Part shown: piece after piece, positions 11,068-56,848 of the stretch
Numbering within the stretch: the stretch's first letter is position 1
Layout of the letters: the number at the start of each line of letters is the position of its first letter
Virus record (IMG/VR): IMGVR_UViG_3300028591_000161
Coordinates: 19,179 to 83,178 of that record
From: a virus
Taxonomy: Duplodnaviria; Caudoviricetes
Strand: one strand, 5' to 3'
DNA length: 64,000 nt
Program-made: the position numbers and the translations under genes
Notes under the pieces: generated by a model
Told to the model about the DNA's origin: nothing
Seen by the model: the letters and a program-made list of their open reading frames with translations, nothing else
Database searches by the model: none

Positions 11068-11156
11068 GATTTTCACTCCTTAAATATATATTCTTGACAT
11101 GATACCACAGGAGTCGGATGTGGTATTATTACAACGTATTTGATTGGAGGAAATGT

Positions 11157-16286: not shown

Positions 16287-16300
16287 TTATCGTTCGGTTT
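16287..16300 (-). promoter_or_regulatory. Putative late promoter AAAC-N7-TAA
   Basis: Minus strand GAAAC-CGAACGA-TAA 28 nt upstream of the beta'-C start. Confidence 0.6.
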
Positions 16301-21942: not shown

Positions 21943-21957
21943 TTACCTTAGCGTTTT
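21943..21957 (-). promoter_or_regulatory. Putative late promoter AAAC-N7-TAA
   Basis: Minus strand AAAAC-GCTAAGG-TAA 27 nt upstream of the fibre start. Confidence 0.65.
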
Positions 21958-26023: not shown

Positions 26024-26038
26024 TTACTGAAACGTTTT
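26024..26038 (-). promoter_or_regulatory. Putative late promoter AAAC-N7-TAA
   Basis: Minus strand AAAAC-GTTTCAG-TAA 25 nt upstream of ATG 25999. Confidence 0.65.
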
Positions 26039-29592: not shown

Positions 29593-29636
29593 ACCATCAC
29601 CTACTTTCTGTATAGAATAAAACGTAATAGGCACGT

Positions 29637-29650
29637 TTACAATGCGGTTT
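29637..29650 (-). promoter_or_regulatory. Putative late promoter AAAC-N7-TAA
   Basis: Minus strand TAAAC-CGCATTG-TAA 45 nt upstream of ATG 29592. Confidence 0.6.
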
Positions 29651-29675
29651 AATGAAAATATTTTATTTCTGAACA

Positions 29676-29723
29676 CATATATTATTCGGGTGCACGGATA
29701 CAAAATATTCTTCATACCGTGCA
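29676..29723 (+). promoter_or_regulatory. Putative early promoter CATATATT plus leader hairpin
   Basis: CATATATTATT (29676-29686) then TGCACGG...CCGTGCA (29691-29723) just before the RBS AAAGGA. Confidence 0.5.
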
Positions 29724-29740
29724 GAAAGGATTGATTTATT

Positions 29741-30349
29741 ATGGTACGAGTTAAGATTAATGCAAATGCACAGTCAGATGTCACTGATATGCGAGCAAAG
29801 GGATGGCATATCCTTGTATTCAGGGGACAGACTCCCGATGCGGACTTCGTAACAGCTGAAAAGAAAGATGTTCGGTTCGTCATGAGAGTCGTTAACAATG
29901 ACAATACAAAATGTGTCGAGATCACAAAATATCTCGACGGATATGTCAAAGACGTTAAGAAATTCTATGAGAACGGCTGCTATTTGAATGGCACATTGTG
30001 TATTTCGGAAGGGAAGGATACTGACCAAACGTACGCATTTTTCAGAAATGAGAAACTGCAGGAAATCATTGACGAATTCGGTCTTCGCCGAATTGTATTT
30101 CCACGTGAAGACGGCAATACATTCTCGAAGATTGTATGGACAAAAGAAGACAAACAATCGCATGGCGTACCAACTCCGATGTTTCATACCGATGGTTCAT
30201 ATGAGGACCAGGGTGTCGAGAATGATACACGCAAATGGCTTGTATCGGGTGCGTCATATATCTATGAATACGTCAGTGGTACACTGACAATCCCACAGCA
30301 GTATGATACTGAAAAAATCCGTGAGATTCTGACCAGTCTGACGGAATGA
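29741..30349 (+). CDS. Hypothetical protein (202 aa)
   Basis: RBS AAAGGA; long ORF. Confidence 0.8.
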   Translation: MVRVKINANAQSDVTDMRAKGWHILVFRGQTPDADFVTAEKKDVRFVMRVVNNDNTKCVEITKYLDGYVKDVKKFYENGCYLNGTLCISEGKDTDQTYAFFRNEKLQEIIDEFGLRRIVFPREDGNTFSKIVWTKEDKQSHGVPTPMFHTDGSYEDQGVENDTRKWLVSGASYIYEYVSGTLTIPQQYDTEKIREILTSLTE

Positions 30350-31669: not shown

Positions 31670-34600
31670 TTATTCGATTTTGATTGCTGTTGTGTTCGGA
31701 ATCGTGGAATGCAACCAGTTTCCAGCAAATCGTTCATGAATCAGTACATGTGTTCCAGGTCTGATCATCGGGATGATTTGTTGTGTTTTGTCAGTCTCAT
31801 CAATCTTTCCATATTTGGATGTAGAGATGTACAATGTGAAGCAATCATCAGACAAACCTGTTGCGTATACTTCATAACCATCTGCCACTTTCTCAACATG
31901 AAGTGATTGCGCTTCACCGACGGTGTCAATATATGCGGACATGTGTTTGAATGGTGTCACACCATCAAGACCTTCACGTTTCCATACTTTGTCAAATGTA
32001 TGGAGAATTTCCCGATTTGGAATTTCTTGGAATCCAATATCCGATGTGCGAAGATTGAATATCGACACACCATTGATTGTCGGGATGTTGTGAAGCTCCA
32101 AATAAGATGTAACTTCAGGCTGTACGATATAATTCATGATGTCCGTCTCATAATCATGATTGTGTGCATCACGAATCTTCTCGTACAGATATGTGTCAAA
32201 GTCAGAATGTGTATCCTGATTGAACATGAATGTCACAGATTGATCCACAATATCAGCACGTTTCCGGAGAATCTCCAGATAAGAGGAATATGTATTGCCA
32301 TCAAAGTCGATGTATGTTGGTCCCAACCGGTTGATCATATTTGGCATGATATCATCCACCAGTTCAATCACATCCAGATTCTTCAATGATGTCATATTCC
32401 GAAGTTGGAATGTGGTTGGTGACAGAATGATGATTTGATCCGGATTCGATACGTATCGTCCATTCACCCAGAACTCATAACGATCACGAGATAACGGTGT
32501 TGGAATCAATCCGGTAAGATCAATCACACCGTTAGATGGAATCTTCTGAGTTGCATATCGACAGATGCCGATAAAGTTTGAACGAATTGACTCGACGTCT
32601 GTATTTGATACCAGATCGGGAACGAAACGGTTTTGTGGTTTGTTTGTCAGCACGTTACCGACCGGATATCTGATGTCATGTGCTTTGTCGTAATAGTATA
32701 CGTACATATCGTCATGTCCAGAGTTATCCGTCTCAACAGTATGTGATGTATCGCGTGCATAGTGATTGCTTAACGTGATATATGTTGACCCATCCAGAAT
32801 GACATCCTGATGTGGTAACAACGCAACACGTTTTGGAATCAGTTTATATGCAATATCCGGTGTTGCTGGGAGAAGAATCCATGGACCAACATCAGGTGTG
32901 GATATACGTTCAGATGATACTGAAACGCGATACACGCCGCCAATCATGGGATGTGATCTGTTTGGAATAATTGTACAGGTGTATTCCCGATTTTGATAAT
33001 CTGGCATAACCGCATTTTGAATTACGATGCCATCATCCGTTGTGATGCCGGTGAACATGACGCTTGATGCACTCTTTCCGAATGTTACATAGTCATTGTC
33101 ATCCACAGCAATCAATGTAACAGTATGGCCAACTTCGTAATTGTCAACAGCATGGATCGAAGAAACAGCATATGAAACATTGAGATGATTCTGTTCCATA
33201 GAGTTATATTCCAAAGGATCTTCGATATAGATATCAAAATCTCCATAGGTATATTCTGTGGCGCTGGTATGCACAATCAAATCTCCGAATCGGATTGGAG
33301 AACCTGTCGTATATCGTCCAGAACGGTTTGGACGTTCAAATACGAAACCATTGACCGAACCAAACGATTCTGGCAATGGTTGCAAGTTGCCGGTTCGATA
33401 TGTTTCATTCTCATCGTAGTGTTTTCTGATACGAATGTTCTCATACATGTTCTTCTCGTCATTGATGTCTGCTTTGTACACCGTCAGAACAGGTTGGAAT
33501 CGAACAACACATCCCATATCGTTCAATGGAATATTGTCGAATACATCCGATGTTTCATATGCAAAGTAAATCAGAATCCGTTTCGACTTGAATGACGCAT
33601 CGGCAAATGTAATACACATCGTTGTCAGAACATTGTCCGTGTTGGAACTGCATACTGGATCAATTGAGATGTCATCTTCCATCAATGTCTCAACAGAGTA
33701 CATGATTGGATTAATCCATTCCTTTGCATCCCAATCATACAGCAGTACTTGCAATTGATCGGAATATGGAATATCTTGTACATGTGGAATGAATGTCTTT
33801 GCAAGTTTTGCACGACCATTGTTGATATACACCAATGCATCGTCATATGCTCTGACATTATACCAGGTTGTCGGAGTTTCCAATTGCTTCAAATATTCAT
33901 CCATTCTGTTCGTGTAATCTTGCCAATACTTCAGTTTCAGCTCTTTGTCTTCAATCTTCAAACGAATCTCTTGACGGCGCTCTTCGGTTGACGCATATGA
34001 AAGTTGTCTATACAACGATACAATCTGCATCGAGAATTGATTTGCCGCCATGACACCCTTTGAAGCTTCTCGTAAAAAGACTTCACGTTCTTCATTCCAA
34101 ACGATATGATCATCCGGTTCTGAACGAAGAATCTCATACAACTCTGGCAATGTAAATGGATTGAAATTGTGATTGATCATGTTTACATAGATTTCTCGAT
34201 CTTCCGTTACAACCTCACCGGATCCGATGTACACGAAATGATGACGAACATCTGTATCAACATGGAACCGATTCGGAATTTCATCATGGAACATCCAAGC
34301 CAATCGTGTATACACGTATTCAGAATTCGATTGTACATAAAGTGGGTCGCCGGGAAGTTCGACCATTGTACCATCTTTTTTCTTACGAAGTTCCGGAATC
34401 ATATACACCGATCCGTCATATTCGGAAAACTCGTCCAAGAAGTTGCGGATGTTGTCATCCACGACGGTACAATTGATGTCGGTCGTCAGGTATTTATGCA
34501 TGACTTCCGGATCATTTGTTTCAAACCATTTTGTATGCTGCAGGTCGACTTTTGCCTCAATAAAACCACGTTCCAACGAATGGTCTATTGCCGTGATTAC

Positions 34601-37600
34601 GATTGGGAATAATGACAGACCGTCATCAGTCACAACGTAAACTGTCTGACCTTCGAAGTATTTACCGCCAATGGATGTAATTATGCCACCAGTGGGTTCG
34701 ATATGATATACATCACACGCACGGAAATGCATCGTTTGTGTTGGACGATTACTTTCGTCAACAACCGCAAGACGATTCATCTGTTCACATGACAGATACA
34801 TCTTATCGATTGGACCTTGGAGTTCGAAGATGTATGGTGAGCAATATTCGGATGTATGCTCGAGTGGTGTGAAATGATTTCCACACAACAACTCATAATG
34901 CAACTCGGCATGACGTTCCTGAATAATATCCGATCCGTCTACATCAAATGTCTCATGAACGTTCATCGTTTCGATCGGAACAGACTGACTGTTCAGATAC
35001 CGACGTGAATCATATTTAACATCGGACGATAAGCCGATTTTCGTGAATGATACATTCACATCGTTGAATATATGAATCTGGTTACCATTTGCATCATACA
35101 ATACGATTGTCACTGTTGTATCTTCACCAGACACGAAAGCATTCTCACAGGTTGGAATGATCTCTGTGATATAACTTACACCTGATGATCTATCACATTT
35201 GACTTGTGCCAACATCGCATAGATTTTATCCGAAACCGGATGAATATCCCATGCAACATGTGGATCGTCAGATGATATCTGGATTTCAGCATATGCCGGT
35301 ACGCCGTTTACCTGCTGGACAAATGGAATCTTATTCATGACATAGAAATCAAAAATGTAATTCTGAATAACATCGTCACAGAATGCAACCAATGTGTCGA
35401 TATACGATGTCTGAACATTACGCAAGAAATCGTCAATCACTGGTTGGATTGAATCAATCCGAGTATTCGCAATCAAAACGGATGCTTTGAAATTCCGAAT
35501 CGCATTACTAAGCTCGATACTTCCGTATGGTTTGTTCGGATTGTCAGTCAGATATGCATTCAGATTGTCAACAGTTTCCATATCGATGTCAGCCAACCAT
35601 TGTTTGTATTCATAAAGACCCATTGTTGTTTGAATCTGTTTCAGATGGATGTACAGCTCTCGCACATTTCGAATTGCAAACCGATCAAATCCAGACCATT
35701 CATGGATTTTACGAAGCATCATCAGTAAACGTTGTGTATTCGTAAAGATATTTGACTCGGTTCCTTGGGATGTAATGGTACCTTTGACAAATGGCAGCAT
35801 TGATTCCAATTCAGTCAATTTGAAATAGACTGGGTTTGATGTGTGTACACTCATGAACTGTTCGACCACATTTGCCGCACCAGCAGAATGGAATTGCAGA
35901 TCAGAACCACGTGTTGCAATATAATGTTGGATATCACGGGTTCGTTTTTCGATCATGTTCTTCATAGACGTAATGATCGGTTGACAATTCCAGCAACTCT
36001 TGTAGTTGGTTGTCAATTCACTAATCCCATCATATACTTCTGCCAAGAAGATGGATACCAGCGAAGCAAGTTGCGCGTCATCATAGTACGTTGTGATTGG
36101 ATGCTCACCCATGCACCCAGAAATGTTAGAATACTGAATGTAGTGTTCTGTATCAACACCCTCGGATGTCAGCATATAGAATGGAGACATTGATCGATAT
36201 GTATTGAACACGAACGGATACCGAACGATGTTACCAGACGGATCAATCGCAGTATATGTCGATGGATTCAGAGGGAACTGTAAACCATTAAAGATTTTCA
36301 GATCCGTTGTATCTGGTAAGGAAGCGTAAGATACATCAGGAGACAATGTTGTTGTTGGTGAATATGATATGACAGAATAATTGATATCTTCTTCTTTCAG
36401 ATCAATATCAATATCAGACAGCTTCAGATCAGCATATCGAGGATAGAATTCCTTTCTCGTGATCGCATTCAGCAAGAATGATTGCATCCGATTCTGATTG
36501 CCATAATACAATGACAATGTATAGAAAAGGAAATTGATTGTGAATGGAGCACGTATAGAAGTTTCGGTATACCCATCGATATTGTCGGAAGTCACATTCG
36601 ACAACTCGTAATTTACATCCGAAGCATATTCAAGGAAGATATCTCCGTCAAGCTTGTGTTTCATGATTTTTGTGATGATTGCAAGCTCTGAAATCTGATC
36701 ACGTGTGCGGTAGAACATGTGACACAACTTCATCAACCGGTTGGATACGTCCCAGTATCGGATATAACCCATGTGCTTCTCGACTTCTTTTGAGAACAGA
36801 TCGAAATCGAGCAGCTGTTCATCCGTCATTTCTGACATAACTGGTTCAGAAGGATTCTCGGTATCTGTGTACAGATATAAGAATTTGAATAGTTCATCAC
36901 CATTCAATTCCGTATCAATGTAGAACATGTTGTCAATACCATGGAAATGTTTGATATTCGGGAGATCAAACACCCAACAACCATAACCTTCGTTGGTGTT
37001 GTACCGAAGTGGAATGAAACATTGTTCAGACACCGGACGATTCACACATACTGGCATTGCTGGGAAGAAGTCTGGATATGTCACCTGACCGAATGTAGAA
37101 AACGGAGGTTTATTCAACGGCTCGCAGATCTTCTTCATGAGCAGTTCATAGTTATCACCATACAACAGCTCGAATGAATGTTCCTGAATGGATTCATAGG
37201 TCGGTTGACAAAACGCGAGTGTATTGAAACGTTCGATTTCATTTTCAAATGTTGAAATCAGATCTAACGGTATCAACGCAGTCATCATTGCTCCGGCAGT
37301 ATAATGTGTATATGCCATATAGAGCGTATTGAAGATACTCCGGGACAAATCCAGCACATTTGTCTGATACCAGTCTTGTACAGATTGTCCTTCCTTGAGC
37401 GGTGGATTTTTTGTGTTTACATTATTTCCGAGAGCACGAATTGCGAGTCTGACTGACTCCATATCAGATTTCACTTTGTAGCAGCTCGTAATCACAGTAT
37501 GACGGTTGTCATCTTGAGATACATGGGACAACGAAATCGGAGGTGTACAGATAGGAAGTTTCTCATCAATCTGTTGATTCTGTAAAGCGATTCGTTTTCC

Positions 37601-38647
37601 CTCATTACTCGCAACACGTCCATAGTCTTCCGTGTATGCATATTTACCCGACATCATGTCGTAGTAATTTACAGCAGGGAAAATACCAGGGACTTCACGA
37701 AGATATTTCAGAATGTAGATACGAATCTTTGCAGTTGTCGACTTGTAATTTGTGAAATCCTGATATGTTTTGGCTTGCAGATTCGGGCATCTCAAACCAG
37801 TTTCTGTGAAATATCCGAAGTTCGGAGCAATCACAACAGACTTCCGAACAACGGTATCCATTATCTGGAGAATCGCATTTTTACCAATCACATACTCAGG
37901 ATTCAAGCCGAGCTCTTCATACGAGATCTCACGGTCTGAACGGATTTTGTTTGTATCGATGTCAACATCATACACGAAGGACTCATCGAGTTTCATGATC
38001 ATAAACTCAACATCAGCAGAATATCTCCAACCAATCTTGAATCGAAAACCCTGTTCAGAGATGCCGACATACCAATCATCGGACATAAATCCATTTGTGC
38101 AACAGATAATTGTGAATCCGAGAATCTTGGAGATCTCGTCTGACAAGAACCTGTCTGCAGGCATGAAGTATTGACTTTCCGTTTCATAGAAAGCATGCAA
38201 CTTTTGACGGACAAATTCATCTCTTTCGCCAAAGTGCATCTGTGCAAATGGGACATCGATGATGTAATAATGATCATATTTGTCATGAGATACATGACGT
38301 TTATCATTATATTTGTACTTGGCAATGACTGCATGGGTATTCACCATCATATTACCCATAGCATTCTGCAAAGTAGCACGATATGTTTCAATCAATGATT
38401 GGTCAATATCTTCAAAGGTATAATTCGATTTTGTCATCAGATCGAAATATTGCTGATACCCTGTGTAGTTGCCGATGACATTATACGGTTGCTCATCCAG
38501 CAATGTAGAGAACGTCTCGGTCAGCTGTGTATACCGATCATTGATCGTCTTCCATTTTGTATCATTGAATGTCCTGGTCCCATTTCGGATACCTGTCAGG
38601 TATCTATGGTATTTATTGAACCAGGCTTTATAGTTCATAATACTCAT
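31670..38647 (-). CDS. Very large probable virion structural protein (about 2325 aa; baseplate/tail-associated?)
   Basis: Uninterrupted 7-kb ORF; RBS AAGGAG before ATG 38647; late-type motif upstream; no enzyme motif recognised. Confidence 0.75.
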   Translation of the reverse strand: MSIMNYKAWFNKYHRYLTGIRNGTRTFNDTKWKTINDRYTQLTETFSTLLDEQPYNVIGNYTGYQQYFDLMTKSNYTFEDIDQSLIETYRATLQNAMGNMMVNTHAVIAKYKYNDKRHVSHDKYDHYYIIDVPFAQMHFGERDEFVRQKLHAFYETESQYFMPADRFLSDEISKILGFTIICCTNGFMSDDWYVGISEQGFRFKIGWRYSADVEFMIMKLDESFVYDVDIDTNKIRSDREISYEELGLNPEYVIGKNAILQIMDTVVRKSVVIAPNFGYFTETGLRCPNLQAKTYQDFTNYKSTTAKIRIYILKYLREVPGIFPAVNYYDMMSGKYAYTEDYGRVASNEGKRIALQNQQIDEKLPICTPPISLSHVSQDDNRHTVITSCYKVKSDMESVRLAIRALGNNVNTKNPPLKEGQSVQDWYQTNVLDLSRSIFNTLYMAYTHYTAGAMMTALIPLDLISTFENEIERFNTLAFCQPTYESIQEHSFELLYGDNYELLMKKICEPLNKPPFSTFGQVTYPDFFPAMPVCVNRPVSEQCFIPLRYNTNEGYGCWVFDLPNIKHFHGIDNMFYIDTELNGDELFKFLYLYTDTENPSEPVMSEMTDEQLLDFDLFSKEVEKHMGYIRYWDVSNRLMKLCHMFYRTRDQISELAIITKIMKHKLDGDIFLEYASDVNYELSNVTSDNIDGYTETSIRAPFTINFLFYTLSLYYGNQNRMQSFLLNAITRKEFYPRYADLKLSDIDIDLKEEDINYSVISYSPTTTLSPDVSYASLPDTTDLKIFNGLQFPLNPSTYTAIDPSGNIVRYPFVFNTYRSMSPFYMLTSEGVDTEHYIQYSNISGCMGEHPITTYYDDAQLASLVSIFLAEVYDGISELTTNYKSCWNCQPIITSMKNMIEKRTRDIQHYIATRGSDLQFHSAGAANVVEQFMSVHTSNPVYFKLTELESMLPFVKGTITSQGTESNIFTNTQRLLMMLRKIHEWSGFDRFAIRNVRELYIHLKQIQTTMGLYEYKQWLADIDMETVDNLNAYLTDNPNKPYGSIELSNAIRNFKASVLIANTRIDSIQPVIDDFLRNVQTSYIDTLVAFCDDVIQNYIFDFYVMNKIPFVQQVNGVPAYAEIQISSDDPHVAWDIHPVSDKIYAMLAQVKCDRSSGVSYITEIIPTCENAFVSGEDTTVTIVLYDANGNQIHIFNDVNVSFTKIGLSSDVKYDSRRYLNSQSVPIETMNVHETFDVDGSDIIQERHAELHYELLCGNHFTPLEHTSEYCSPYIFELQGPIDKMYLSCEQMNRLAVVDESNRPTQTMHFRACDVYHIEPTGGIITSIGGKYFEGQTVYVVTDDGLSLFPIVITAIDHSLERGFIEAKVDLQHTKWFETNDPEVMHKYLTTDINCTVVDDNIRNFLDEFSEYDGSVYMIPELRKKKDGTMVELPGDPLYVQSNSEYVYTRLAWMFHDEIPNRFHVDTDVRHHFVYIGSGEVVTEDREIYVNMINHNFNPFTLPELYEILRSEPDDHIVWNEEREVFLREASKGVMAANQFSMQIVSLYRQLSYASTEERRQEIRLKIEDKELKLKYWQDYTNRMDEYLKQLETPTTWYNVRAYDDALVYINNGRAKLAKTFIPHVQDIPYSDQLQVLLYDWDAKEWINPIMYSVETLMEDDISIDPVCSSNTDNVLTTMCITFADASFKSKRILIYFAYETSDVFDNIPLNDMGCVVRFQPVLTVYKADINDEKNMYENIRIRKHYDENETYRTGNLQPLPESFGSVNGFVFERPNRSGRYTTGSPIRFGDLIVHTSATEYTYGDFDIYIEDPLEYNSMEQNHLNVSYAVSSIHAVDNYEVGHTVTLIAVDDNDYVTFGKSASSVMFTGITTDDGIVIQNAVMPDYQNREYTCTIIPNRSHPMIGGVYRVSVSSERISTPDVGPWILLPATPDIAYKLIPKRVALLPHQDVILDGSTYITLSNHYARDTSHTVETDNSGHDDMYVYYYDKAHDIRYPVGNVLTNKPQNRFVPDLVSNTDVESIRSNFIGICRYATQKIPSNGVIDLTGLIPTPLSRDRYEFWVNGRYVSNPDQIIILSPTTFQLRNMTSLKNLDVIELVDDIMPNMINRLGPTYIDFDGNTYSSYLEILRKRADIVDQSVTFMFNQDTHSDFDTYLYEKIRDAHNHDYETDIMNYIVQPEVTSYLELHNIPTINGVSIFNLRTSDIGFQEIPNREILHTFDKVWKREGLDGVTPFKHMSAYIDTVGEAQSLHVEKVADGYEVYATGLSDDCFTLYISTSKYGKIDETDKTQQIIPMIRPGTHVLIHERFAGNWLHSTIPNTTAIKIE

Positions 38648-38671
38648 GAAGGATGCTCCTTTCATTTAAAG

Positions 38672-38686
38672 TTACAGAACCGTTTT
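38672..38686 (-). promoter_or_regulatory. Putative late promoter AAAC-N7-TAA
   Basis: Minus strand AAAAC-GGTTCTG-TAA 25 nt upstream of ATG 38647. Confidence 0.65.
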
Positions 38687-46502: not shown

Positions 46503-48926
46503 TTAATTGATTTCAGATGATTGGTTAATTTCATCCAAGAATCGTGCGACAATAGACTTCATCTCCGGTATAAATGCCTTCAATTCCTGAAGTGTTTCAT
46601 ATTCGGAAATTGTCAATTCACGATCATCTCTAGCCGCCATCAAGTCATTGAATCTGTTTGCAAAGTTTTCGAACTTCGTCTGCAATTCTTTGAATTGATT
46701 GCATGCCGTCGGATGTTCATAAATACATTTATCAACAATGAGACTGCATTTCAATGCTGATTCAGGTAACCAGTCTGCAATGAATGTCTGGAGCATCAAT
46801 GGATTTTTTTCATTGACAAACTCACTGAGTTCCTTCGCATTCCAGACTGTATCATCAACGTCCCACATATCAATGAGTCCACGACAAAGTCCTTCAAGAT
46901 CTTTTGGTTCTTTCGAGAATTTGTCTTTTAGTTTGCTGAAGAATCCTTCTTGAACGGGACGACCAGACTTCGCTTCGACCATCTTGAGAACACCAGACGC
47001 TTCAGCAACAAATGCTTGAATCATTCTCTTGACGGTCATAATCGAGTTCTTATCGATATCAGGACGAAGCATTGACATCAAATCCGACAAACAATGATTC
47101 AATTTCAAAAGCTGATTACGTTCTGTTTCGTCATATACTTTACCCATTTTGGATGCAGCGTGTACAACACGATTCAGCTTACGTCCTTCTTTTTTGAAGT
47201 CAGAGCAGATTTCAGCAATCTCAAGCTCGGAGCTATTCAGGATTCCCAACGCTTTTCTGAGGTGAACATCCAGCTCCCGGTTAATGTTACCTCGCGTCAG
47301 AAAAAAAGCTTCTTGCTGAACCCCTTCATCTTCCGGCGCTGGAGCATCATCGGTTGGAGGTGGTGCTTCCGCCATACCAGTGTAGTCACCCTGCAGGAAA
47401 GCCTTGATCTGCTGCATGGTCATGCCCTTCATCTTCTCCTGACCCTGTGCGAGCATTTCGTCCATGGTCATGTTGTCGAAGTCGGCATCCGATGTCTCTG
47501 CCGGTGCGGAATCGACAGTATCTTCGGTTCCTTCTGTAGGAGCATCACCAAGTTCTGCATTCAGTTCTTCCTCAGTGGGTTGCTCACCCTCAGAATCGGA
47601 TGCATCCATACCATCAATATTGATGTCATTTTCCGCAGCCGCATCATTCTGTGTTTCGTCAGCAACTTTCTCGGCAATCTGATCGGATACATTATTGGTA
47701 TCAACGACCTCTTTGTTCTCGTCTCCTTCTGTAGGAGCATCAGCAGCAGGATCACCTTCAGCTGGAGCAGCTGCTGCATCACCATCTGCGGGTGGAGCAT
47801 CAGTACCGTCACCAGCAGGCTGTTGCATGCCATCAGCAGGAGGAGCATCAAAGGATACAGATGCTGCATTCGGATCAGCTGCAGGCGGTTCATTCGGATC
47901 ACCGAAGTCAATTGCTTCCTGATAGAAACGGTCTGGTGCATGATATCCGGATGCGATCAATGCAGCCTCTTGACGGATTGCTTCACCCTTTGTCATGACT
48001 GAAAGCTTCTTGATTTCTCCGGTAGAAGGAGTGGTAGTCTCAACATTCTTTGAGAACCCGGTATCTGTCTGACCTTTGATAGAAGCATGCCATTCAATGT
48101 ACTGAAGATCGTCACCAGTACCGTCAAGCTCGAAGCCGACAGCAACACAAAACTTGTCGGAAGGCTTTGCAGGAATGACAAGTTCAACGGGAGTTACCTT
48201 CGACCAGATCTCTTCAGGAGTCTCAATGCCGACTTTGGTGCCGAATGCAGCATACGCAGCCCCTTGCATAGCATGATCTCGTGAAGTTTGCGCCTGGAAT
48301 GACATGAGGCTGTCAAGTTGCTTCTTCAGAATACGATTCTTTTTATCGACTTCAAACTTGACAGGAAGCTTGACAGTATAATCTTTACCGTTCAGCTTAC
48401 CAAACTCGATAGAAACACGTGCTGGAACACGGGAATCATTGACGGAGAGTTTATCGAAACCGAACAAACCTTCCTGAATGCAGTAATTTTTGTATGCTGC
48501 AAACTTGTGATTGGCGATTTCATGAACTCTGGTATTGTATGCTTCATCGGATTCACGCATATACTGCGTGGTTTCATTGTATGCTTCCTGAATGAAATCT
48601 TCGGGCGTCCGCATACCAACATACACAGTGTCAGATTCCTGAACAGTAGCATCTGTTGGAATGTTCGTGACACGGCCATCCAGAAGATTCATTTCAACCG
48701 CAGTGATCTCCGGATCATCTTCAAGCGGAATATCAATCTTTGTAAATGGACGCGTGCTGTTTGCTTCCGTGCCTTCGATTGAGAGGTCATCCAGTTCTTG
48801 GACCAGATGTGCATACTCCAGAATCGCATCATTCATTTGCGCTTCTTCATTCACGGCTTCAACTGCAGCGGCTTCTCCAGCCGCCTTTGCCCGTGCCTGA
48901 AGTTGCTCATTGATGAAACTAAGCAT
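46503..48926 (-). CDS. Probable internal head protein (807 aa), acidic with a long disordered Pro/Ala/Asp linker and repeated QE[AGS] motifs
   Basis: RBS AAAGGAG; motifs TVQES, FIQEA, CIQEG, IRQEA, FYQEA, VQQEA, PVQEG. Confidence 0.7.
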   Translation of the reverse strand: MLSFINEQLQARAKAAGEAAAVEAVNEEAQMNDAILEYAHLVQELDDLSIEGTEANSTRPFTKIDIPLEDDPEITAVEMNLLDGRVTNIPTDATVQESDTVYVGMRTPEDFIQEAYNETTQYMRESDEAYNTRVHEIANHKFAAYKNYCIQEGLFGFDKLSVNDSRVPARVSIEFGKLNGKDYTVKLPVKFEVDKKNRILKKQLDSLMSFQAQTSRDHAMQGAAYAAFGTKVGIETPEEIWSKVTPVELVIPAKPSDKFCVAVGFELDGTGDDLQYIEWHASIKGQTDTGFSKNVETTTPSTGEIKKLSVMTKGEAIRQEAALIASGYHAPDRFYQEAIDFGDPNEPPAADPNAASVSFDAPPADGMQQPAGDGTDAPPADGDAAAAPAEGDPAADAPTEGDENKEVVDTNNVSDQIAEKVADETQNDAAAENDINIDGMDASDSEGEQPTEEELNAELGDAPTEGTEDTVDSAPAETSDADFDNMTMDEMLAQGQEKMKGMTMQQIKAFLQGDYTGMAEAPPPTDDAPAPEDEGVQQEAFFLTRGNINRELDVHLRKALGILNSSELEIAEICSDFKKEGRKLNRVVHAASKMGKVYDETERNQLLKLNHCLSDLMSMLRPDIDKNSIMTVKRMIQAFVAEASGVLKMVEAKSGRPVQEGFFSKLKDKFSKEPKDLEGLCRGLIDMWDVDDTVWNAKELSEFVNEKNPLMLQTFIADWLPESALKCSLIVDKCIYEHPTACNQFKELQTKFENFANRFNDLMAARDDRELTISEYETLQELKAFIPEMKSIVARFLDEINQSSEIN

Positions 48927-48999
48927 GGCTTATTCTCCTTTACATTTTTTTTTTGAATAGAGACATATATCGTTTTCGAGTGTGGGGATATAATGGCTC

Positions 49000-49174: not shown

Positions 49175-51106
49175 ATGAATCCGTACAGAGAGTATCAGGA
49201 TCGAATCCTCAATATGTATATGCAGATGCATCCGGATCGAAATCCGGATAAAGTTCGACAGCATATACAAGAAATGACGGACCGTTCTTTTCGTGATATT
49301 CCATGCGAATTGAACAATAACATCACCCATGAGACAATCAATACAAGTGTATGCGCAACCTTTGATTGGATCGAGCAACGTTCACCGATTATCTCTGGCA
49401 ATGGTACGTTCTTTATGCAACATGAGGAATATCTTGCACCGATCGTGGTCATGCTTGAAACACTTCAGGCTGAACGTAAAGGCGTTAAGAAAGAAATGTA
49501 TAAGTATGATAAAGAATCCGTGCAATATGCTCTGCTGAACACAGAACAAGGTTCGATTAAGGTCATTATGAATGCTGACTACGGCGGGTCTGGAACGACG
49601 TTGTCACCATTCTATTCTTGTTACATCCCACCGGCAACGACGGGATCTGCCAAGGTTATGACCACAACCTTAATCTGCTGTTTGGAAATGCTCTCGGGAA
49701 ACAAAGACAAATGGGCCAAGATACAGAACATCAACGGGTTGTACGATTTCATCTATATTGTGTTGGATAATAAGGAAGATCGTCCAAATATGATTCATGA
49801 TAAATTCAGCATTGATGAAACTGCAGAAGCGTTGCTCAGCTTCGTATATGCATACACATTGACAGATGTTGAATATCTGAAGAAATTTCTCATGACATTA
49901 TCCGATGAGCAAATTTGTAAACTCCGGTTGGCATTCCAAGTCAAATATGTTTTGTCCACATATTTGGAAACCGAGATCAATGCGACGATGGATTATTTGA
50001 AGTCACATAAGATTGATTGGTCCAATATTACAAAAGAGACACTATATATTTCTGGCTTTGGTACAGAGATTCCTACAGAAATCAAAGACTATGTCGACCG
50101 AATTAGCAAGGTTGTTCTCGATAGTTGTTGTTATCCATTCATCCTAAATGACAATGAAGTTCGTGCGGCTGAAATGCAGAATCGTTTGATTGTCTGTATC
50201 ACAGATACGGATTCGTTGATGGTTCATTTTGCACATTATATAGACGAATTCCATTCCCGTGTATCAAACTTCCGTGATAGCTGTATTATCGCATCAGCAC
50301 TCGGTATGCGCCTGTTTGTCGAAAATATCATCCCTCGGATGGTTAGATATCTAACGATGGGATGCAATATTAAAGATGAATACTATCGTAAGAAGTTCGT
50401 CTTCAAGAATGAATTCGGATTCTTAGCACAAGCTTTGATTGCAAAGAAGATGTATGCATCGTCTATGTTTGTACAAGAGGGTACGCCGCGTAACATTCAT
50501 TCGATTGCAGTCTCCGGTTTGTCATTCAAGAAACGTGACTCGGCAGAGTTCCTTGAAGACATCATGGTTCATCTCTATGATAAGTACATTCTGACACCGG
50601 ATCATGTATCCGTTGAAGGTATCATGGATGAATATTATGCATTACGAGAACGATTGAAAGGAGAGCTCGAACATAATCCAAAGTTTTATCAGGTACTTGG
50701 ATTGAAGGACGTTTCTGCATATGATTCAAGCAAGATTCTACCAGAGCAAATGCGTGGTGCTCTGGTTTGGAACGAACTGATGCCTGATGAACAGCTGATG
50801 CCTATGGACCGCGTCATTGTTGTACGCCTCTCGTTTGAGAAGATGCAACAATATGCTTCACGTGATCCGAAAATTGCAGCAGTACTGCGAATGTCATTGG
50901 TCAATAATGAAAAAATGAAAGACACACCATTCATTTGTCTCCCTGAACATTATCGTGAGATTCCTGATTGGATTTCATTGATCATTGACAAAGAAGGTAT
51001 GGTCGACAAATTACTGACTCCATTCAAGCAACTGTTGAGTCTGTTCGATATCATGGTTGCTGATACAAAAGCTGGTTCTATGTCTTCCAGAATGATCTGT
51101 TTATAA
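49175..51106 (+). CDS. Family B DNA polymerase, C-terminal catalytic subunit (motifs B and C) of a split polymerase
   Basis: Motif B RKGVKK...KVIMNADYG, motif C ITDTDSL, KKMYA, SGLSFKKRD. Confidence 0.85.
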   Translation: MNPYREYQDRILNMYMQMHPDRNPDKVRQHIQEMTDRSFRDIPCELNNNITHETINTSVCATFDWIEQRSPIISGNGTFFMQHEEYLAPIVVMLETLQAERKGVKKEMYKYDKESVQYALLNTEQGSIKVIMNADYGGSGTTLSPFYSCYIPPATTGSAKVMTTTLICCLEMLSGNKDKWAKIQNINGLYDFIYIVLDNKEDRPNMIHDKFSIDETAEALLSFVYAYTLTDVEYLKKFLMTLSDEQICKLRLAFQVKYVLSTYLETEINATMDYLKSHKIDWSNITKETLYISGFGTEIPTEIKDYVDRISKVVLDSCCYPFILNDNEVRAAEMQNRLIVCITDTDSLMVHFAHYIDEFHSRVSNFRDSCIIASALGMRLFVENIIPRMVRYLTMGCNIKDEYYRKKFVFKNEFGFLAQALIAKKMYASSMFVQEGTPRNIHSIAVSGLSFKKRDSAEFLEDIMVHLYDKYILTPDHVSVEGIMDEYYALRERLKGELEHNPKFYQVLGLKDVSAYDSSKILPEQMRGALVWNELMPDEQLMPMDRVIVVRLSFEKMQQYASRDPKIAAVLRMSLVNNEKMKDTPFICLPEHYREIPDWISLIIDKEGMVDKLLTPFKQLLSLFDIMVADTKAGSMSSRMICL

Positions 51107-51690: not shown

Positions 51691-51700
51691 AATATATATT
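51691..51700 (+). promoter_or_regulatory. Putative early promoter AATATATATT
   Basis: Intergenic, heads the operon that includes the sigma-like and beta'-N genes. Confidence 0.4.
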
Positions 51701-51755
51701 GTTCTGAATAGGTGTAACCTTAACATACATTATATTTGAAAGGGGGCTGGCTTTT

Positions 51756-52346
51756 ATGCCATTCCAAAATTCATCAAATGGTTTCAATAACCAAAACAAT
51801 TCTCAGGGTGAGAAGAAGCGTACCAACTTCCCGGTTGGTCGTCTGTATGCAACGGATGCGATTCTTGATGTTCGTGTCTGGGTTACCGAGTCATCGGTGT
51901 TCACGATCTTCTCTGCAAAGCAGGCTGTCGGTAAGGATCCGTCAACCGGCGCAAACGTATATGAGCAGAAGATGCCGAATGAACTGCCGAGAATCTTCCT
52001 GAATCCGGAATATCTCCGTGCATTCCTTGAGGCTGCTAAGGCGCATGATATTACCAAGGGTGGTACGCTCACGATTTCGCCGAAGAAGGGTTCCACGCTC
52101 ACTGTCGTCGGTACTCCGGAAGGTCAGGTCAAGGTTACGATGGAGAATGATAAGGGATCTCGTACGGCGACATTCGAACCGATTCCTTGTGGTATGGGTT
52201 CTATCAATTCATCATGGAAGAACCTCATCGCACTTTGCGAAGTCGCGATGAAGAAGGGCCTGTACGCAAAACTGGATCCGGAGGAGTTCGGCAATGCACT
52301 TGCAGCATCCGCTGTGGAAAGTGACGACAACGAGCTTCCGATCTGA
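51756..52346 (+). CDS. Hypothetical protein, possible ssDNA-binding protein
   Basis: Acidic-hydrophobic C-terminal tip (ESDDNELPI) like SSB tails; strong C-ending codon bias; replication/transcription operon. Confidence 0.55.
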   Translation: MPFQNSSNGFNNQNNSQGEKKRTNFPVGRLYATDAILDVRVWVTESSVFTIFSAKQAVGKDPSTGANVYEQKMPNELPRIFLNPEYLRAFLEAAKAHDITKGGTLTISPKKGSTLTVVGTPEGQVKVTMENDKGSRTATFEPIPCGMGSINSSWKNLIALCEVAMKKGLYAKLDPEEFGNALAASAVESDDNELPI

Positions 52347-52969
52347 TGATTGACTTCTCCCATATCGGACAAGATGCATTCGTGATTCAATACGAGGACT
52401 TGATCTCGTTAATCGGATTGAATACCGTTCGATTTCTGCGTGAAAAACAGAATCTTCCGAATACAGACGATTTGACACTGGAATACTTGAATAGAACTGA
52501 CTACGATATCCCAAAGTTTATACAGACTCACAACTGTACATCTATGGTGATACCGGTGATACCGGAGTCTTCTATGTGGCATTCCAAGATTGCGTGTCGT
52601 CCGAATTTAGCATATGCATTCAAGATGATGCGCGCTGCTGCGGACAACGGCATTCATCGTTTTGTGATTCATTCGAATGTGTATTCTCCAGTGATCGAAG
52701 AATTTGTCAATGGGTTAGAAATCAAAACAACGTATGAGCACGGGGATATTGTCCCCGTGCTTCGTGCGTTACCCAATTGCACATATACGACATCGAATCC
52801 TGATAATATTCGGAAGTGTATGGATGTGCAAGTACCATTTGCACTCACGATTGTAGACGATTTTCAATATGTCGCTCCAATCGTAATGGATCAATCATTC
52901 ATTGACAAATTAAGAGAGAAGAATGTATACGTCCAATTCACCGGCGTGATATCCGCCGGAATTATTTGA
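52346..52969 (+). CDS. Hypothetical protein (207 aa; possibly degenerate HAD-like fold)
   Basis: TGATG overlap with the upstream gene; weak HAD-like pattern only. Confidence 0.7.
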   Translation: MIDFSHIGQDAFVIQYEDLISLIGLNTVRFLREKQNLPNTDDLTLEYLNRTDYDIPKFIQTHNCTSMVIPVIPESSMWHSKIACRPNLAYAFKMMRAAADNGIHRFVIHSNVYSPVIEEFVNGLEIKTTYEHGDIVPVLRALPNCTYTTSNPDNIRKCMDVQVPFALTIVDDFQYVAPIVMDQSFIDKLREKNVYVQFTGVISAGII

Positions 52970-52994
52970 TATCATCCCATTACGTCAGGAGGTT

Positions 52995-54635
52995 GTGGCA
53001 GTGGCAGAGCCTGTAAACAAAACGCTGTTGTATTTATATAATCCAGATGAAGTGTATGAATACAATGCGACCCATGGAACAAATTATCCGTATAATGGCT
53101 TTCCGACAGGTCAGTACGGAAGAAAGTATAAGAAAACTAGATTCATCAACTGGGAACCAATACCGGAAGATATTATCATCCGCCATACCGGTTCGCAGAT
53201 CTTTGTGAATTTTTCCGCATTGTTTCCGAATGATATTCCTGACCCCGCGATTCAACTGTTTCAGATGAGAACCAGAAGACTTGATCTTCAAAACCTCATA
53301 TGTGAACAGATCAATTTCTTTACGGCATTATATGATGACGATAATGATCTCATCACATCAATGTTGATTGCGAAACTTATGACCGATTCCCAGACATATA
53401 CGATCGTGACATTTGAAGAATATCAACAGCAGTTGTTCGACATTCTATTTCCCGAAAGAACTATCGCTAAAATCAGAAAGATGGTAGAAGAGAATGATGT
53501 CGGAGATGACGTCAAAGGTCTCTTCCCAGAGGATATGCCGCGTGATATCTTTATCGTTTCTTTCATGATAAAGGTCATGCATATCTTCATCGAACACTTC
53601 ATCATTTCAACGGGCAATTCCCCGAAGGATCTGTATGAATTGTTTGCAACGGCATTCACCAACATTATGAATCACATCAATCCGAACATTTACAAACTTC
53701 TGTATGACTACGTATACAACTCGGTCGTTCAGAGCTGCTCATCCAATTCTAATATTTATGACATGCAGGCAATCGACGGTGTCACAATTCCGACAACCGC
53801 ACAGTTTGTCATGCGAAAGAGTTTGCTTTGCGACGGCTTGATCAAACTTACCTTCGCTTCGGCGTGGGACAATCAACAAAAACGCCCGACGTTTTCATGT
53901 GTCGGTTTAATCAAGGCAATTATCACACAGGCTTCATTTGTCACAAGAAAGGTTCAACTCCGGTACACACTTGTCAATGTCGATGATATCTCTCAGCTTC
54001 TCCCAGATCAGATTTCAAATAATTCTCCGATCTCAACGATTCGGTCATTTAATCCGGGAGAATATGCATGCATTTATGAAGATCTGAAAGGTATCATTGC
54101 ACACATTGCAATGGAAATCGATGTTTCACCGGTGAAATTCTATCTGGAGAATCTTCCTCAGATGAACGACCTTTCAAAGGTGCTTGTGGAAGCTGTGTTG
54201 TACAATAAATTCCATTCATCGATCCCGATCAATGTGATGTCGATGTATCAGAAATACATTCTTCTCCTGTATGTACGTCACATGGTCATGCAGTTATATA
54301 ATTTAACAGAAGAAGACACAAAGTCCAATCTGTTGATCAATATGCTGATGGCAAAGACTGTGACACATACAACCAAGACTCTGACGGCGAAGGATCTGAA
54401 CTCCATCAAGAAGTTCGTGAAACTGAACAATCTTCGTCAATTCTTGTTGTCCGAAAAGAATGTAACAACATTTATCGAAGCAATCATGCATTCGGTTCTC
54501 TCGTCGTATACAATCGTCAATCATAATGATCCAGACTTGTTGAATACGACACTGCAGTATGACGCAAATTCAATGACGGTTGATCTTTTGGACCTGACGG
54601 TCATGCTGCTGGATAAGTGTGCACCACAAGGATGA
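52995..54635 (+). CDS. Putative sigma-like promoter-specificity subunit of the non-virion RNAP (AR9 gp226 / phiKZ gp68-like)
   Basis: By-eye colinear similarity to recalled AR9 gp226 (FVNFSALF, ICEQINFF...NDLITSML, KIRKMVEEND, NIYKLLYDYVY, LYNKF); directly upstream of beta'-N; RBS AGGAGG with GTG start. Confidence 0.65.
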   Translation: MAVAEPVNKTLLYLYNPDEVYEYNATHGTNYPYNGFPTGQYGRKYKKTRFINWEPIPEDIIIRHTGSQIFVNFSALFPNDIPDPAIQLFQMRTRRLDLQNLICEQINFFTALYDDDNDLITSMLIAKLMTDSQTYTIVTFEEYQQQLFDILFPERTIAKIRKMVEENDVGDDVKGLFPEDMPRDIFIVSFMIKVMHIFIEHFIISTGNSPKDLYELFATAFTNIMNHINPNIYKLLYDYVYNSVVQSCSSNSNIYDMQAIDGVTIPTTAQFVMRKSLLCDGLIKLTFASAWDNQQKRPTFSCVGLIKAIITQASFVTRKVQLRYTLVNVDDISQLLPDQISNNSPISTIRSFNPGEYACIYEDLKGIIAHIAMEIDVSPVKFYLENLPQMNDLSKVLVEAVLYNKFHSSIPINVMSMYQKYILLLYVRHMVMQLYNLTEEDTKSNLLINMLMAKTVTHTTKTLTAKDLNSIKKFVKLNNLRQFLLSEKNVTTFIEAIMHSVLSSYTIVNHNDPDLLNTTLQYDANSMTVDLLDLTVMLLDKCAPQG

Positions 54636-54647
54636 AAGGAGATTAGA

Positions 54648-56030
54648 ATGAAAGCTGAAAGATGTAATCTCGAAATTGAATATCTTTCTGATATCGCAAC
54701 ACACAATGGTTTTCGTATCGAGAAAGAAGATCCTTATGCACCGACCAATGTAAATGCATTGGTAGATTCATCGAAATTCACAGATTGTGAATACAGATGT
54801 GATTGCGGAGCATTCATCGGTCAGGACCTGATCGGTCAGACTTGTCCGTGTTGCCATTCTGAAATCACATTGCATTCTCTGAACTTTGGTTATACAGGAT
54901 GGATTGATCTTCATGAACACAAGGTCATTACGCCTGTATATTACATCATGCTGAAACGTGTCCTCGGTACAAACATGCTGCGGTATATTCTCGGCGATTA
55001 CAAATCGAAACTCGATATCAAGTATAACGAGAATGACAAAGGTGAACCGGAGGAGAAAAAGCAGAAACGTGCTGGACGAGTCTCACAGGATGATATTCGG
55101 TATATCGAAAAGAAAATTCCGAAGACGAAGCTGATGTATAAAGGTATCGGACATGATGGGTTCTATCAGAGATTTGAAGAAATCATCACAGCATGTGCTC
55201 CAAAGAGCAATGAAGAAGTGCCGATTCTTTTGGCAAATAAGGAGTCAGTATTTACATCCAAGATCCCACTGTACTCAACCGCATTCCGTCCGGTATCAAA
55301 GACTTCTGAAACGAAGTTTTATCCGAAGATCAATAAGTGGTTTGCACAGATGGTTTCGGTTGCATGCCGTATGGAAAATATGGTGCTTGACATCGAGAAA
55401 ATGCAGGCGTTGAATTACATTCAGAAATGCTGGATGGATGCCGCCGAGCATATCATCAAGAATGAGATGTCGAAGAAAGAAGGTTTCGTTCGTTCTGAAA
55501 TCGTTGGTGGTTCCTTCGCATTCTCAGCACGTTCTGTCATCACGCTTGACATTTCATTGAATGTTGATGAGGTTGATCTGCCGTACTCCATGGTCTTGAC
55601 AGCATATCAGTATCGTCTGACATATATGCTTGCGACACGTTATAACATGACGCTTGAACAAGCATACCTGTTCATCAATACTTATGAACAGAATGACATC
55701 ATCATCAGTCTGCTGAATGAAATTATCGATGAAGGACAATGGGTCATGTATTTGCGTGAACCGACAAACAATCTCGGTTCAATCGTTCTGGCTAAGATCC
55801 GCAGATACAAAATTGGTGATGACACAATGTCAGTGCCGCTCGAAGTTCTGTCGCTTCTGAATGCAGACTTTGATGGAGACCAGCTCGATATTCTGTTCCT
55901 TCTGGATCCACAGTTGGTTCCGAAGTTTGATGCATTCCATTATTCTTGTCTCACCGACAGAATCAACGAGACAGTGTCACTCGATATCTTGTCATGGTCG
56001 GATGTTGCGCTTGGTCGTATGACTGAATAA
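54648..56030 (+). CDS. rpoC: Multisubunit RNA polymerase beta' N-terminal subunit with catalytic motif (probably non-virion RNAP)
   Basis: Zn ribbon CDCG...CPCC, YTGWIDL, KIPLYSTAFRP, KEGFVRSEIVGGSFAFSARSVI, LREPT, LNADFDGDQL. Confidence 0.92.
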   Translation: MKAERCNLEIEYLSDIATHNGFRIEKEDPYAPTNVNALVDSSKFTDCEYRCDCGAFIGQDLIGQTCPCCHSEITLHSLNFGYTGWIDLHEHKVITPVYYIMLKRVLGTNMLRYILGDYKSKLDIKYNENDKGEPEEKKQKRAGRVSQDDIRYIEKKIPKTKLMYKGIGHDGFYQRFEEIITACAPKSNEEVPILLANKESVFTSKIPLYSTAFRPVSKTSETKFYPKINKWFAQMVSVACRMENMVLDIEKMQALNYIQKCWMDAAEHIIKNEMSKKEGFVRSEIVGGSFAFSARSVITLDISLNVDEVDLPYSMVLTAYQYRLTYMLATRYNMTLEQAYLFINTYEQNDIIISLLNEIIDEGQWVMYLREPTNNLGSIVLAKIRRYKIGDDTMSVPLEVLSLLNADFDGDQLDILFLLDPQLVPKFDAFHYSCLTDRINETVSLDILSWSDVALGRMTE

Positions 56031-56059: not shown

Positions 56060-56076
56060 TCTTTTTTCTATCTTCA

Positions 56077-56125
56077 AATATATATTCTTATTTTGAACAA
56101 TAGAGCGTATTCAAAAAAACGCTCT
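56077..56125 (+). promoter_or_regulatory. Putative early promoter AATATATT plus leader hairpin
   Basis: AATATATT (56077-56084) then AGAGCGT-N10-ACGCTCT (56102-56125) before AAGGAGG. Confidence 0.5.
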
Positions 56126-56822: not shown

Positions 56823-56848
56823 TAATGGGCGGGTCATCCCGCCCATTA
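56823..56848 (+). terminator. Intrinsic terminator
   Basis: TAATGGGCGGG-TCAT-CCCGCCCATTA. Confidence 0.7.

Follow-up and report, generated by a model that had tools for sequence, protein, structure and literature searches.

A distant homolog of the AR9 gp226 promoter-specificity subunit in an uncultured jumbo phage with probable thymine DNA

The window analyzed here is a 64-kb stretch of an 83,178-bp viral contig (IMGVR_UViG_3300028591_000161; completeness rating 31%) from an uncultured jumbo phage. An open reading frame (ORF) on its plus strand, at 52995-54635, encodes a protein (P0001) that we identified as a distant homolog of gp226, the promoter-specificity subunit of the non-virion RNA polymerase (nvRNAP) of phage AR9. 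It is preceded by three small ORFs without a family match and by one part of a family-B DNA polymerase that is split in two, and the gene for the nvRNAP β′-N subunit lies directly downstream. Together with homologs of β-C and β-N in G001, a complete relative (IMGVR_UViG_3300033463_000004; 262.7 kb, 37% GC) that is collinear with the window's contig at ~73% nucleotide identity, this arrangement points to an nvRNAP with split β and β′ genes. AR9 homologs were found for 37 ORFs of G001. The GC content of the window is 40-43%, compared to 27.8% for AR9. Among 347 metagenome homologs of P0001, many come from contigs of 250-295 kb, and five relatives with 66-90% protein identity to P0001 are rated 92-100% complete. 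The features of the locus are as follows.

52995..54635 (+): fifth subunit of the nvRNAP, a sigma-like promoter-specificity factor of the gp226/gp68 family (family profile, AlphaFold2 (AF2) model, Foldseek, VIA-align)
53748..53777 (+): predicted short helix, residues 252-261, equivalent to the 2.1bis helix of gp226 (residues 205-214) (AF2, MAFFT, hmmalign)
54648..56030 (+): β′-N subunit of the nvRNAP, with NADFDGD and an N-terminal Cys cluster (PF00623, phrog_2987, PDB matches)

As called, the specificity-subunit ORF begins with GTG and encodes 546 residues. A Shine-Dalgarno sequence lies merely 2 nt from this first GTG (52995), while a second GTG two codons on (53001) has AGGAGG 8 nt upstream and gives an N-terminus, MAEPVNK..., like that of the homologs. 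Because of this spacing and the homolog-like N-terminus, the true start is probably the GTG at 53001, giving a protein of 544 residues. An AF2 model built from a 42-sequence alignment (mean predicted local distance difference test score, pLDDT, of 84) is almost wholly helical, with an N-terminal domain at ~56-325 and a C-terminal domain at 353-546, both helical, joined by a flexible linker (327-352; pLDDT <50). The ORF call, the model, and the start of β′-N 12 nt downstream agree with the original prediction, made from the sequence, of a 546-residue helical protein adjoining β′-N.

P0001 had no match in Pfam or PHROGs, gave only noise in a phmmer search of the PDB, and had no tblastn match among 50,697 phage records. 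Searching 1.8 billion representatives exhaustively with HMMER added full-length relatives at 21-28% identity, and P0150, from this library, matched P0001 over its full length (E 5e-10). Transitive phmmer links between P0001 and gp226 (sequence taken from KU878088) run via P0150, P0169, and P0160, with gp226 matching the intermediates of P0001 at 45-71 bits. When a 29-member family profile was searched against the whole PDB, the sole match was 7s01_A, which is AR9 gp226 (E 2.3e-42), and the alignment ran end to end (profile 29-522 against chain 11-462). Foldseek of the AF2 model also placed gp226 first (E 3.8e-11) and phiKZ gp68 third (1.8e-5). VIA-align superposed model residues 56-538 on residues 3-464 of 7s01_A (Z 23.0, 408 residues), and the C-terminal domain alone on 7um1_A (Z 11.8, 164 residues, root-mean-square deviation (rmsd) 3.8). 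The whole-chain rmsd is large because the two domains sit differently relative to each other; they are mobile relative to each other in AR9 as well (PMC9209446). VIA-align to phiKZ gp68 gave Z 10.6-11.7, and the stretch of the model that holds the 2.1bis-type helix (residues 229-325) superposed on domain 2 of sigma-70/sigma-A at Z ~5. The ORF protein is therefore securely a true, very distant homolog of AR9 gp226 (~15% identity). The original prediction had called it a gp226-like specificity subunit, colinear by eye with gp226, and had proposed a structural comparison with the AR9 nvRNAP; the identification was correct, colinearity holds in both the profile and the structural alignments, and the comparison found likeness to gp226 and gp68 alike.

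In the AR9 enzyme, β-N and the 2.1bis helix of gp226 (205-214) bury the template-strand uracil at -10 between them, with the C-β of V206 3.9 Å from C5, I207 wedging the base, and Y210 stacking on the -9 guanine (PMC9209446). The V206G substitution allows the AR9 enzyme to use T at -10, as the original prediction had stated, and T at -11 is excluded through packing of the DNA backbone, with no side chain involved (PMC9209446). In the AF2 model of the window protein, a 10-residue helix is predicted at 252-261 between two long helices, column for column with gp226 205-214. Both MAFFT and hmmalign place N251-S-N-I-Y-D-M257 opposite AR9 D204-V-V-I-W-T-Y210, such that V206 is replaced by N253, W208 by Y255, and Y210 by M257, while I207 corresponds to I254 (N253-I254-Y255-D256-M257 versus V206-I207-W208-T209-Y210). 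The rough alignment of NSNIY with DVVIW in the original prediction, from which it suggested that the pocket may differ, was thus reproduced by two methods.

This helix also sets the window family apart from three lineages of deoxyuridine (dU) phages. Using the family profile A3, we located the gp226 homologs of phiR1-37 (E 1e-34) and SA1 (S6-like; E 6e-30), and the three dU-type lineages compared have S-D-x-V-I-W-x-[Y/F]-L in common (AR9, YSDVVIWTYL; SA1, YNDRVIWRFL; phiR1-37, YSDQVIWRYL). In the window family, the corresponding segment is S-S-N-[S/A]-N-I-Y-D-M-Q, nearly invariant in close homologs, and the dU signature is absent. Of the feature that marks the dU subclass, Val at 206 and an aromatic residue at 210 within this signature, the window family lacks both the valine and the guanine-stacking aromatic, although the intervening isoleucine is kept. 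Alignment of the β-N pocket residues (AR9 gp105 R363, K375, and N382) with G001 β-N was unreliable, and we drew nothing from it.

Downstream, the β′-N subunit has 460 residues, and its best solved relatives are AR9 nvRNAP gp270 (7s01_d/7s00_d, E 2e-20) and phiKZ gp55 (7ogp_A, 2e-19). The specificity subunit and β′-N probably form one operon. An N-terminal cluster of cysteines in β′-N (C47, C51, C53, C66, C68, and C69; window 54786-54857) resembles the N-terminal Zn site of phiKZ gp55, which is absent from AR9 gp270 (PMC7618050). Considered together with the AR9-like promoters described below, this cluster makes the polymerase core look intermediate between phiKZ and AR9. By analogy with AR9, in which g226 has an annotated early promoter directly upstream, the specificity-subunit gene is probably early and co-transcribed with β′-N. 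A weak candidate for such a promoter lies ahead of the operon:

51691..51703 (+): AT-rich AATATATATTGTT, possible early (virion-RNAP) promoter ahead of the operon 51756-56030

AATATATATTGTT resembles AAATATATATTCTT, found at 11082-11095 (+) and 56076-56089 (+) ahead of plus-strand genes, with further sites at 56848 and at 51691 itself. Both AATATATATTGTT and, almost to identity, AAATATATATTCTT resemble AAATATATATTAT, which is annotated in AR9 as an early promoter; a copy of it stands directly upstream of AR9 g226. The AAATATATATTCTT sites number just two or three in the window, and an exact copy was not found in G001.

The window also contains five exact AAAC(G/C)-N6-TA sites and one variant. 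They follow closely on terminator hairpins and precede minus-strand virion genes and a virion-RNAP gene by 17-40 nt. Several of these sites have orthologs in G001.

16288..16300 (-): late promoter AAACCGAACGATA, ahead of the virion-RNAP β-like gene 14340-16259; G001 ortholog at 148886
21944..21956 (-): late promoter AAACGCTAAGGTA, directly past a terminator hairpin and 39 nt ahead of the gene 18863-21916
26025..26037 (-): late promoter AAACGTTTCAGTA, ahead of the gene 23645-25999; G001 ortholog at 161895
29638..29650 (-): late promoter AAACCGCATTGTA, ahead of a head-tail-joining-like gene; G001 ortholog at 165467
38673..38685 (-): late promoter AAACGGTTCTGTA, ahead of the 2331-residue gene 31670-38665; G001 ortholog at 174483
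48963..48975 (-): variant late-promoter candidate AAACGATATATGT, with G for T at -1, ahead of the gene 46503-48926

AAACGATATATGT is weaker than the other sites because it departs from the consensus. The ORF call that contains AAACCGCATTGTA (28312-29949, head-tail-joining-like) is probably overlong at its 5′ end; the orthologous G001 site at 165467 lies 17 nt ahead of a shorter ORF. The gene behind AAACCGAACGATA encodes a 639-residue protein in which an RNAP β-like piece (phrog_2962) is fused to a region matching a virion structural family (phrog_2926), and with a late promoter upstream it is probably a virion-RNAP subunit.

Counted across the window regardless of context, the pattern is not significantly enriched (11 versus 6.7 expected), but its placement is significant. 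On the window's own 83-kb contig, five sites lie 15-100 nt upstream of starts compared to 0.7 expected (p 5e-4). G001 has 64 AAAC[GC]N6TA sites, 20 of them within the 6.4% of its DNA that is non-coding (p 2e-9), and 18 co-oriented sites 15-100 nt upstream of starts compared to 2.4 expected (p 1e-11). For a control, we counted AACA-N6-TA, the form published for AR9, upstream of genes in six sequences. This form was enriched in AR9 (75 versus 12.3 expected), SA1 (36 versus 8.3), and phiR1-37 (58 versus 10.0) and was not enriched in the thymine phage 201phi2-1 (17 versus 12.1), in G001 (6 versus 4.2), or in our own contig (0 versus 0.6). The geometry of the late promoters is therefore that of AR9, but G/C replaces A at -8 and an extra A is preferred at -12. 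The altered helix and the altered promoter occur together. The six promoters with AR9 geometry that had been predicted were recovered, five as exact sites and one as a variant, with -8 differing from the AR9 form.

We next consider whether the genome contains uracil or thymine, judging by gene content because U and T look alike in sequence data. ThyX was detected above the Pfam cut-off in all five near-complete relatives, none of which has ThyA. The G001 enzyme (L024:910-1923; 337 residues, 71.8 bits on Pfam) keeps the RHR...ES.RY motif. G001, the one relative tested for it, also encodes a dCMP deaminase (71.8 bits), such that the route from dCMP through dUMP to dTMP is encoded. In G001-G004, ThyX carries an insertion of ~130 residues between Pfam positions 68 and 66 and scores 50-76 bits. 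In G005, a more distant relative, ThyX is canonical (164 bits; match to M. tuberculosis ThyX at 2e-19), without the insertion and with a C-terminal extension of ~150 residues. Among the controls, ThyA and ThyX were both absent from five dU-type phages (AR9, Goe21, BpSp, phiR1-37, and SA1), while 201phi2-1 has ThyA. Searches with the AR9 uracil-DNA glycosylase (UDG) inhibitor, Ugi (g104), by phmmer and tblastn gave no match in G001 or in our own contig; this is weak evidence because small inhibitors diverge quickly. Judging from the gene content of the relatives, the genome is very probably ordinary thymine DNA.

A wider survey of the gp226 family places this lineage in context. Using two sub-family alignments (A4 and A5), we collected 118 further gp226-family loci from IMG/VR; as single queries for related loci, the proteins P0169 and P0141 found nothing. 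Among 35 contigs of 200-279 kb (30 of them rated >=90% complete), 13 encode ThyX, 18 encode ThyA, and four encode neither. The resulting 31/35 with a thymidylate-synthase family member is an upper bound for thymine genomes because ThyA-family enzymes can also be hydroxymethylases. The AR9 promoter form occurs in such genomes as well: AACA-N6-TA was found 38 times compared to 3.9 expected in G031, a complete genome with ThyA (p 9e-28), and eight times compared to 1.2 expected in an 80-kb part of G020, which has ThyX. At the level of sequence, the combination of an AR9-type promoter and a gp226-type subunit is thus common in genomes encoding a thymidylate synthase, and thymine genomes look like the norm for the gp226 system, with dU phages as the special case. 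The original prediction had offered two options for the window, a new dU lineage or a natural thymine-reading version of the system, and had called both informative. Of these, the thymine version is the better fit, on the strength of the relatives, and it is also less exceptional than supposed, as thymidylate synthase genes occur in most IMG/VR phages of the gp226 family.

Valine at the 206 position was also considered as a marker of dU genomes by itself and was rejected. It is present in several genomes that encode ThyX (G013, G020, and G025) or ThyA (G028 and G031-G033) and is therefore not diagnostic of uracil.

Two other members of the family stood out in the survey. G010 (IMGVR_UViG_3300028171_000090; L129, L244-L255), a 223-kb jumbo phage, has a gp226 homolog with S-D-R-G-H-W, in which a natural Gly occupies the V206 position. 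It encodes neither ThyA nor ThyX and has 54 AACA-N6-TA sites upstream of genes compared to 7.1 expected, making it a candidate for a new dU lineage or for a thymine lineage that depends on its host. G007 (IMGVR_UViG_3300025000_000053; L108, L115; 249.9 kb) carries two different gp226-family genes, at ~6.8-10.3 kb and 234.1-237.6 kb, with the helix motifs ATNKPMWEQQ and SSNKPMWEQQ. By analogy with the alternative sigma factors of bacteria, these may be alternative specificity subunits.

As a whole, the observations at the locus are best explained by a sigma-like fifth nvRNAP subunit, distantly homologous to gp226, that serves late promoters in thymine DNA, which we consider likely. The specificity subunit would be transcribed with β′-N, probably early, join the split β/β′ core, and direct it to late promoters of the form 5′-(A)AAAC(G/C)-N6-TA(A)-3′ ahead of virion genes and virion-RNAP genes, including the virion-RNAP β gene. 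These promoters have the layout of AR9 AACA-N6-TA, with AAC from -11 to -9 and TA at the start site. By analogy with AR9, template-strand positions -11 to -9 (3′-TTG-5′) would be held between the helix at 252-261 and β-N, in a site that would prefer G/C over A at -8. Since the genome is most probably thymine DNA and the helix is altered, this site would have to tolerate 5-methyl groups. More tentatively, and with slightly less than even confidence, we propose that uracil dependence is a derived specialization, that the prevailing gp226-type polymerase reads the -11/-10 template positions as thymines, and that the present lineage, with N253/M257 and G/C at -8, is a natural thymine reader.

Several points weigh against this interpretation. 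Asn253 keeps a C-β, which, were the backbone unchanged, would collide with a 5-methyl group in the way that Val does; given this and the AR9-type exclusion of T at -11, acceptance of thymine would need a rearranged site, with a shift in the backbone or in the position of the base. The assignment of thymine DNA comes from collinear relatives at the nucleotide identity given above, and our own contig, a 31% fragment, has no thymidylate synthase. In G001, ThyX lies ~11 kb beyond the point at which the window's contig ends, and the absence is therefore uninformative. The ~130-residue insertion in ThyX is a further concern, and a phmmer search with the G001 enzyme gave no direct match to solved ThyX structures. 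In the five relatives, family searches found no trimeric dUTPase, MazG, or thymidylate kinase, and for UDG only one sub-threshold match. Of the gene content that the original prediction had proposed to examine for dU DNA, no dUTPase was found in the five relatives, but these relatives do encode a thymidylate synthase, and no Ugi was found in G001 or in our own contig. Finally, neither direct BLASTP to gp226 nor hhalign of the close-family alignment to gp226 was significant, and the link to gp226 therefore needed distant intermediates.

Some of these points would also fit a new deoxyuridine-DNA lineage that reads template uracils as AR9 does, in which the relatives' ThyX-like gene either serves another function or does not occur in this phage. 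In favor of such a lineage are the promoter layout with AA at -11/-10, the gp226 homology, the C-β that Asn253 keeps at the V206 position, the contig fragment without a Thy gene, the relatives, in which dUTPase, thymidylate kinase, and UDG were not found, and G001, in which a chimallin homolog was not found. Uracil DNA is nevertheless quite improbable because ThyX is present in 5/5 near-complete relatives compared to ThyA or ThyX in 0/5 dU-type phages, Ugi was not found in G001 or our own contig, and the V-I-W-x-[YF] signature of three dU lineages is missing; the dCMP deaminase of the one relative tested and the different base at -8 also argue against it. We know of no ThyX-family enzyme that makes a base other than thymine, which counts against a related proposal, that the DNA contains a modified pyrimidine such as a 5-substituted deoxyuridine made by the insertion-bearing ThyX-like enzyme, to which the pocket has adapted. 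The insertion and low scores (50-76 bits) of ThyX in G001-G004 and the lack of a direct structural match in G001 could be read in this way, and as a homolog of the nucleus shell was not found in G001, some other DNA protection might be expected (correlation in PMC7598289). With the ThyX signature motifs intact and a canonical ThyX in the distant relative G005, however, we consider such a base very unlikely.

A different kind of alternative accepts a thymine-DNA phage with an nvRNAP specificity subunit but places read-out in the non-template strand or the duplex, as for sigma factors and as proposed for phiKZ gp68, with AAC...TA simply inherited. This stays a real rival, although an unlikely one, because template-strand read-out of thymines does not account for the Asn C-β or for the exclusion of T at -11 by the DNA conformation in AR9. 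Two residues of the AR9 template-strand site, V206 and Y210, are replaced, and the alignment of the β-N pocket (R363/K375) is unreliable; β′-N retains a Zn-binding Cys cluster, as in phiKZ and reportedly not in AR9; and the N-terminal domain of AR9 gp226 itself also binds the complementary AACA of the non-template strand (PMC9209446). On the other side, 2.1bis, the helix to which the template-strand site owes its existence, is retained with unchanged position and length, the spacing from -11 to +1 is exactly conserved, and I207 is preserved as I254.

The window system shares features with each of the characterized systems to which we compared it. The window protein is homologous along its full length to gp226 of AR9/PBS1 (PDB 7S01, 7UM0, and 7UM1 chain A; PMC5449584, PMC9209446), with which it shares two helical domains, a flexible linker, and the position of the 2.1bis helix. 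Its gene, like g226, neighbors nvRNAP core genes and is probably early, and its late promoters combine AAC (-11 to -9) with TA at the start site at identical spacing. Unlike gp226, the window protein, at ~15% identity, is 80 residues longer and has V206, W208, and Y210 changed to N, Y, and M, its promoters have G/C rather than A at -8 and an extra upstream A, and its β′-N partner keeps the Zn-binding Cys cluster. Since its relatives encode ThyX and no Ugi was found in G001, it probably acts on T-DNA and not on dU-DNA. The phages phiR1-37 and SA1 (S6-like) share the gp226 family and promoters of the AAC-N7-TA type upstream of genes; unlike them, the window lineage lacks the S-D-x-V-I-W-x-[YF]-L helix and the AACA promoter form, and its relatives have ThyX where these phages have neither ThyA nor ThyX.

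Similarity to phiKZ gp68 (PDB 7OGP/7OGR/8QUE/9RJS chain B) is of a more general kind. Both are fifth, sigma-like nvRNAP subunits with a two-domain architecture, gp68 from a thymine-DNA jumbo phage, and both have a β′-N partner with a Zn site; the C-terminal domain superposes at Z 10.6-11.7 with an rmsd of ~4. However, gp68 is far more distant, as the family profile misses the 201phi2-1 homolog, and late promoters of phiKZ have TATG where transcription starts and lack an AAC element of the -10 type (PMC7618050). Whereas phiKZ-like phages build a nucleus of chimallin, no homolog of chimallin (201phi2-1 gp105) was found in G001, a weak result for a protein that diverges fast. Region 2 of bacterial sigma-70 matches in structure (Z ~5) without detectable sequence similarity, which agrees with the published view of gp226 as a diverged sigma factor.

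Two further observations concern the genomes themselves. The split family-B DNA polymerase is encoded in two pieces 44 kb apart, an exonuclease part and a polymerase part (window 3459-5291 (+) and 49175-51106 (+)), both of which have AR9 homologs in G001. The G001 record (L033-L046) is given as linear, but its first 242 bases are approximately a copy of its last 242, and the nvRNAP β-N gene spans the junction, encoding 537 residues after joining. The record is therefore probably a complete, circularly assembled genome of ~262.45 kb.

To our knowledge, no promoter-specificity factor other than AR9 gp226 is known to read the template strand, and gp226 requires uracil. Published work ties this template-strand mechanism to dU genomes and sets it against phiKZ, whose promoter differs. 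Here, the same subunit family and promoter layout are found in a lineage that almost certainly makes thymidylate. If its DNA contains uracil instead, it would represent a new dU lineage that carries ThyX, which would be equally unexpected. If its polymerase reads thymines, the requirement for uracil would have been added late and would serve to tell self from host, and natural pairs of helix and promoter (V-I-W-x-Y with AACA versus N-I-Y-x-M with AAAC[G/C]) could be used to study how the pocket discriminates U from T. Comparison with AR9 would then give a structural rule for uracil versus thymine recognition that goes beyond the engineered V206G substitution.

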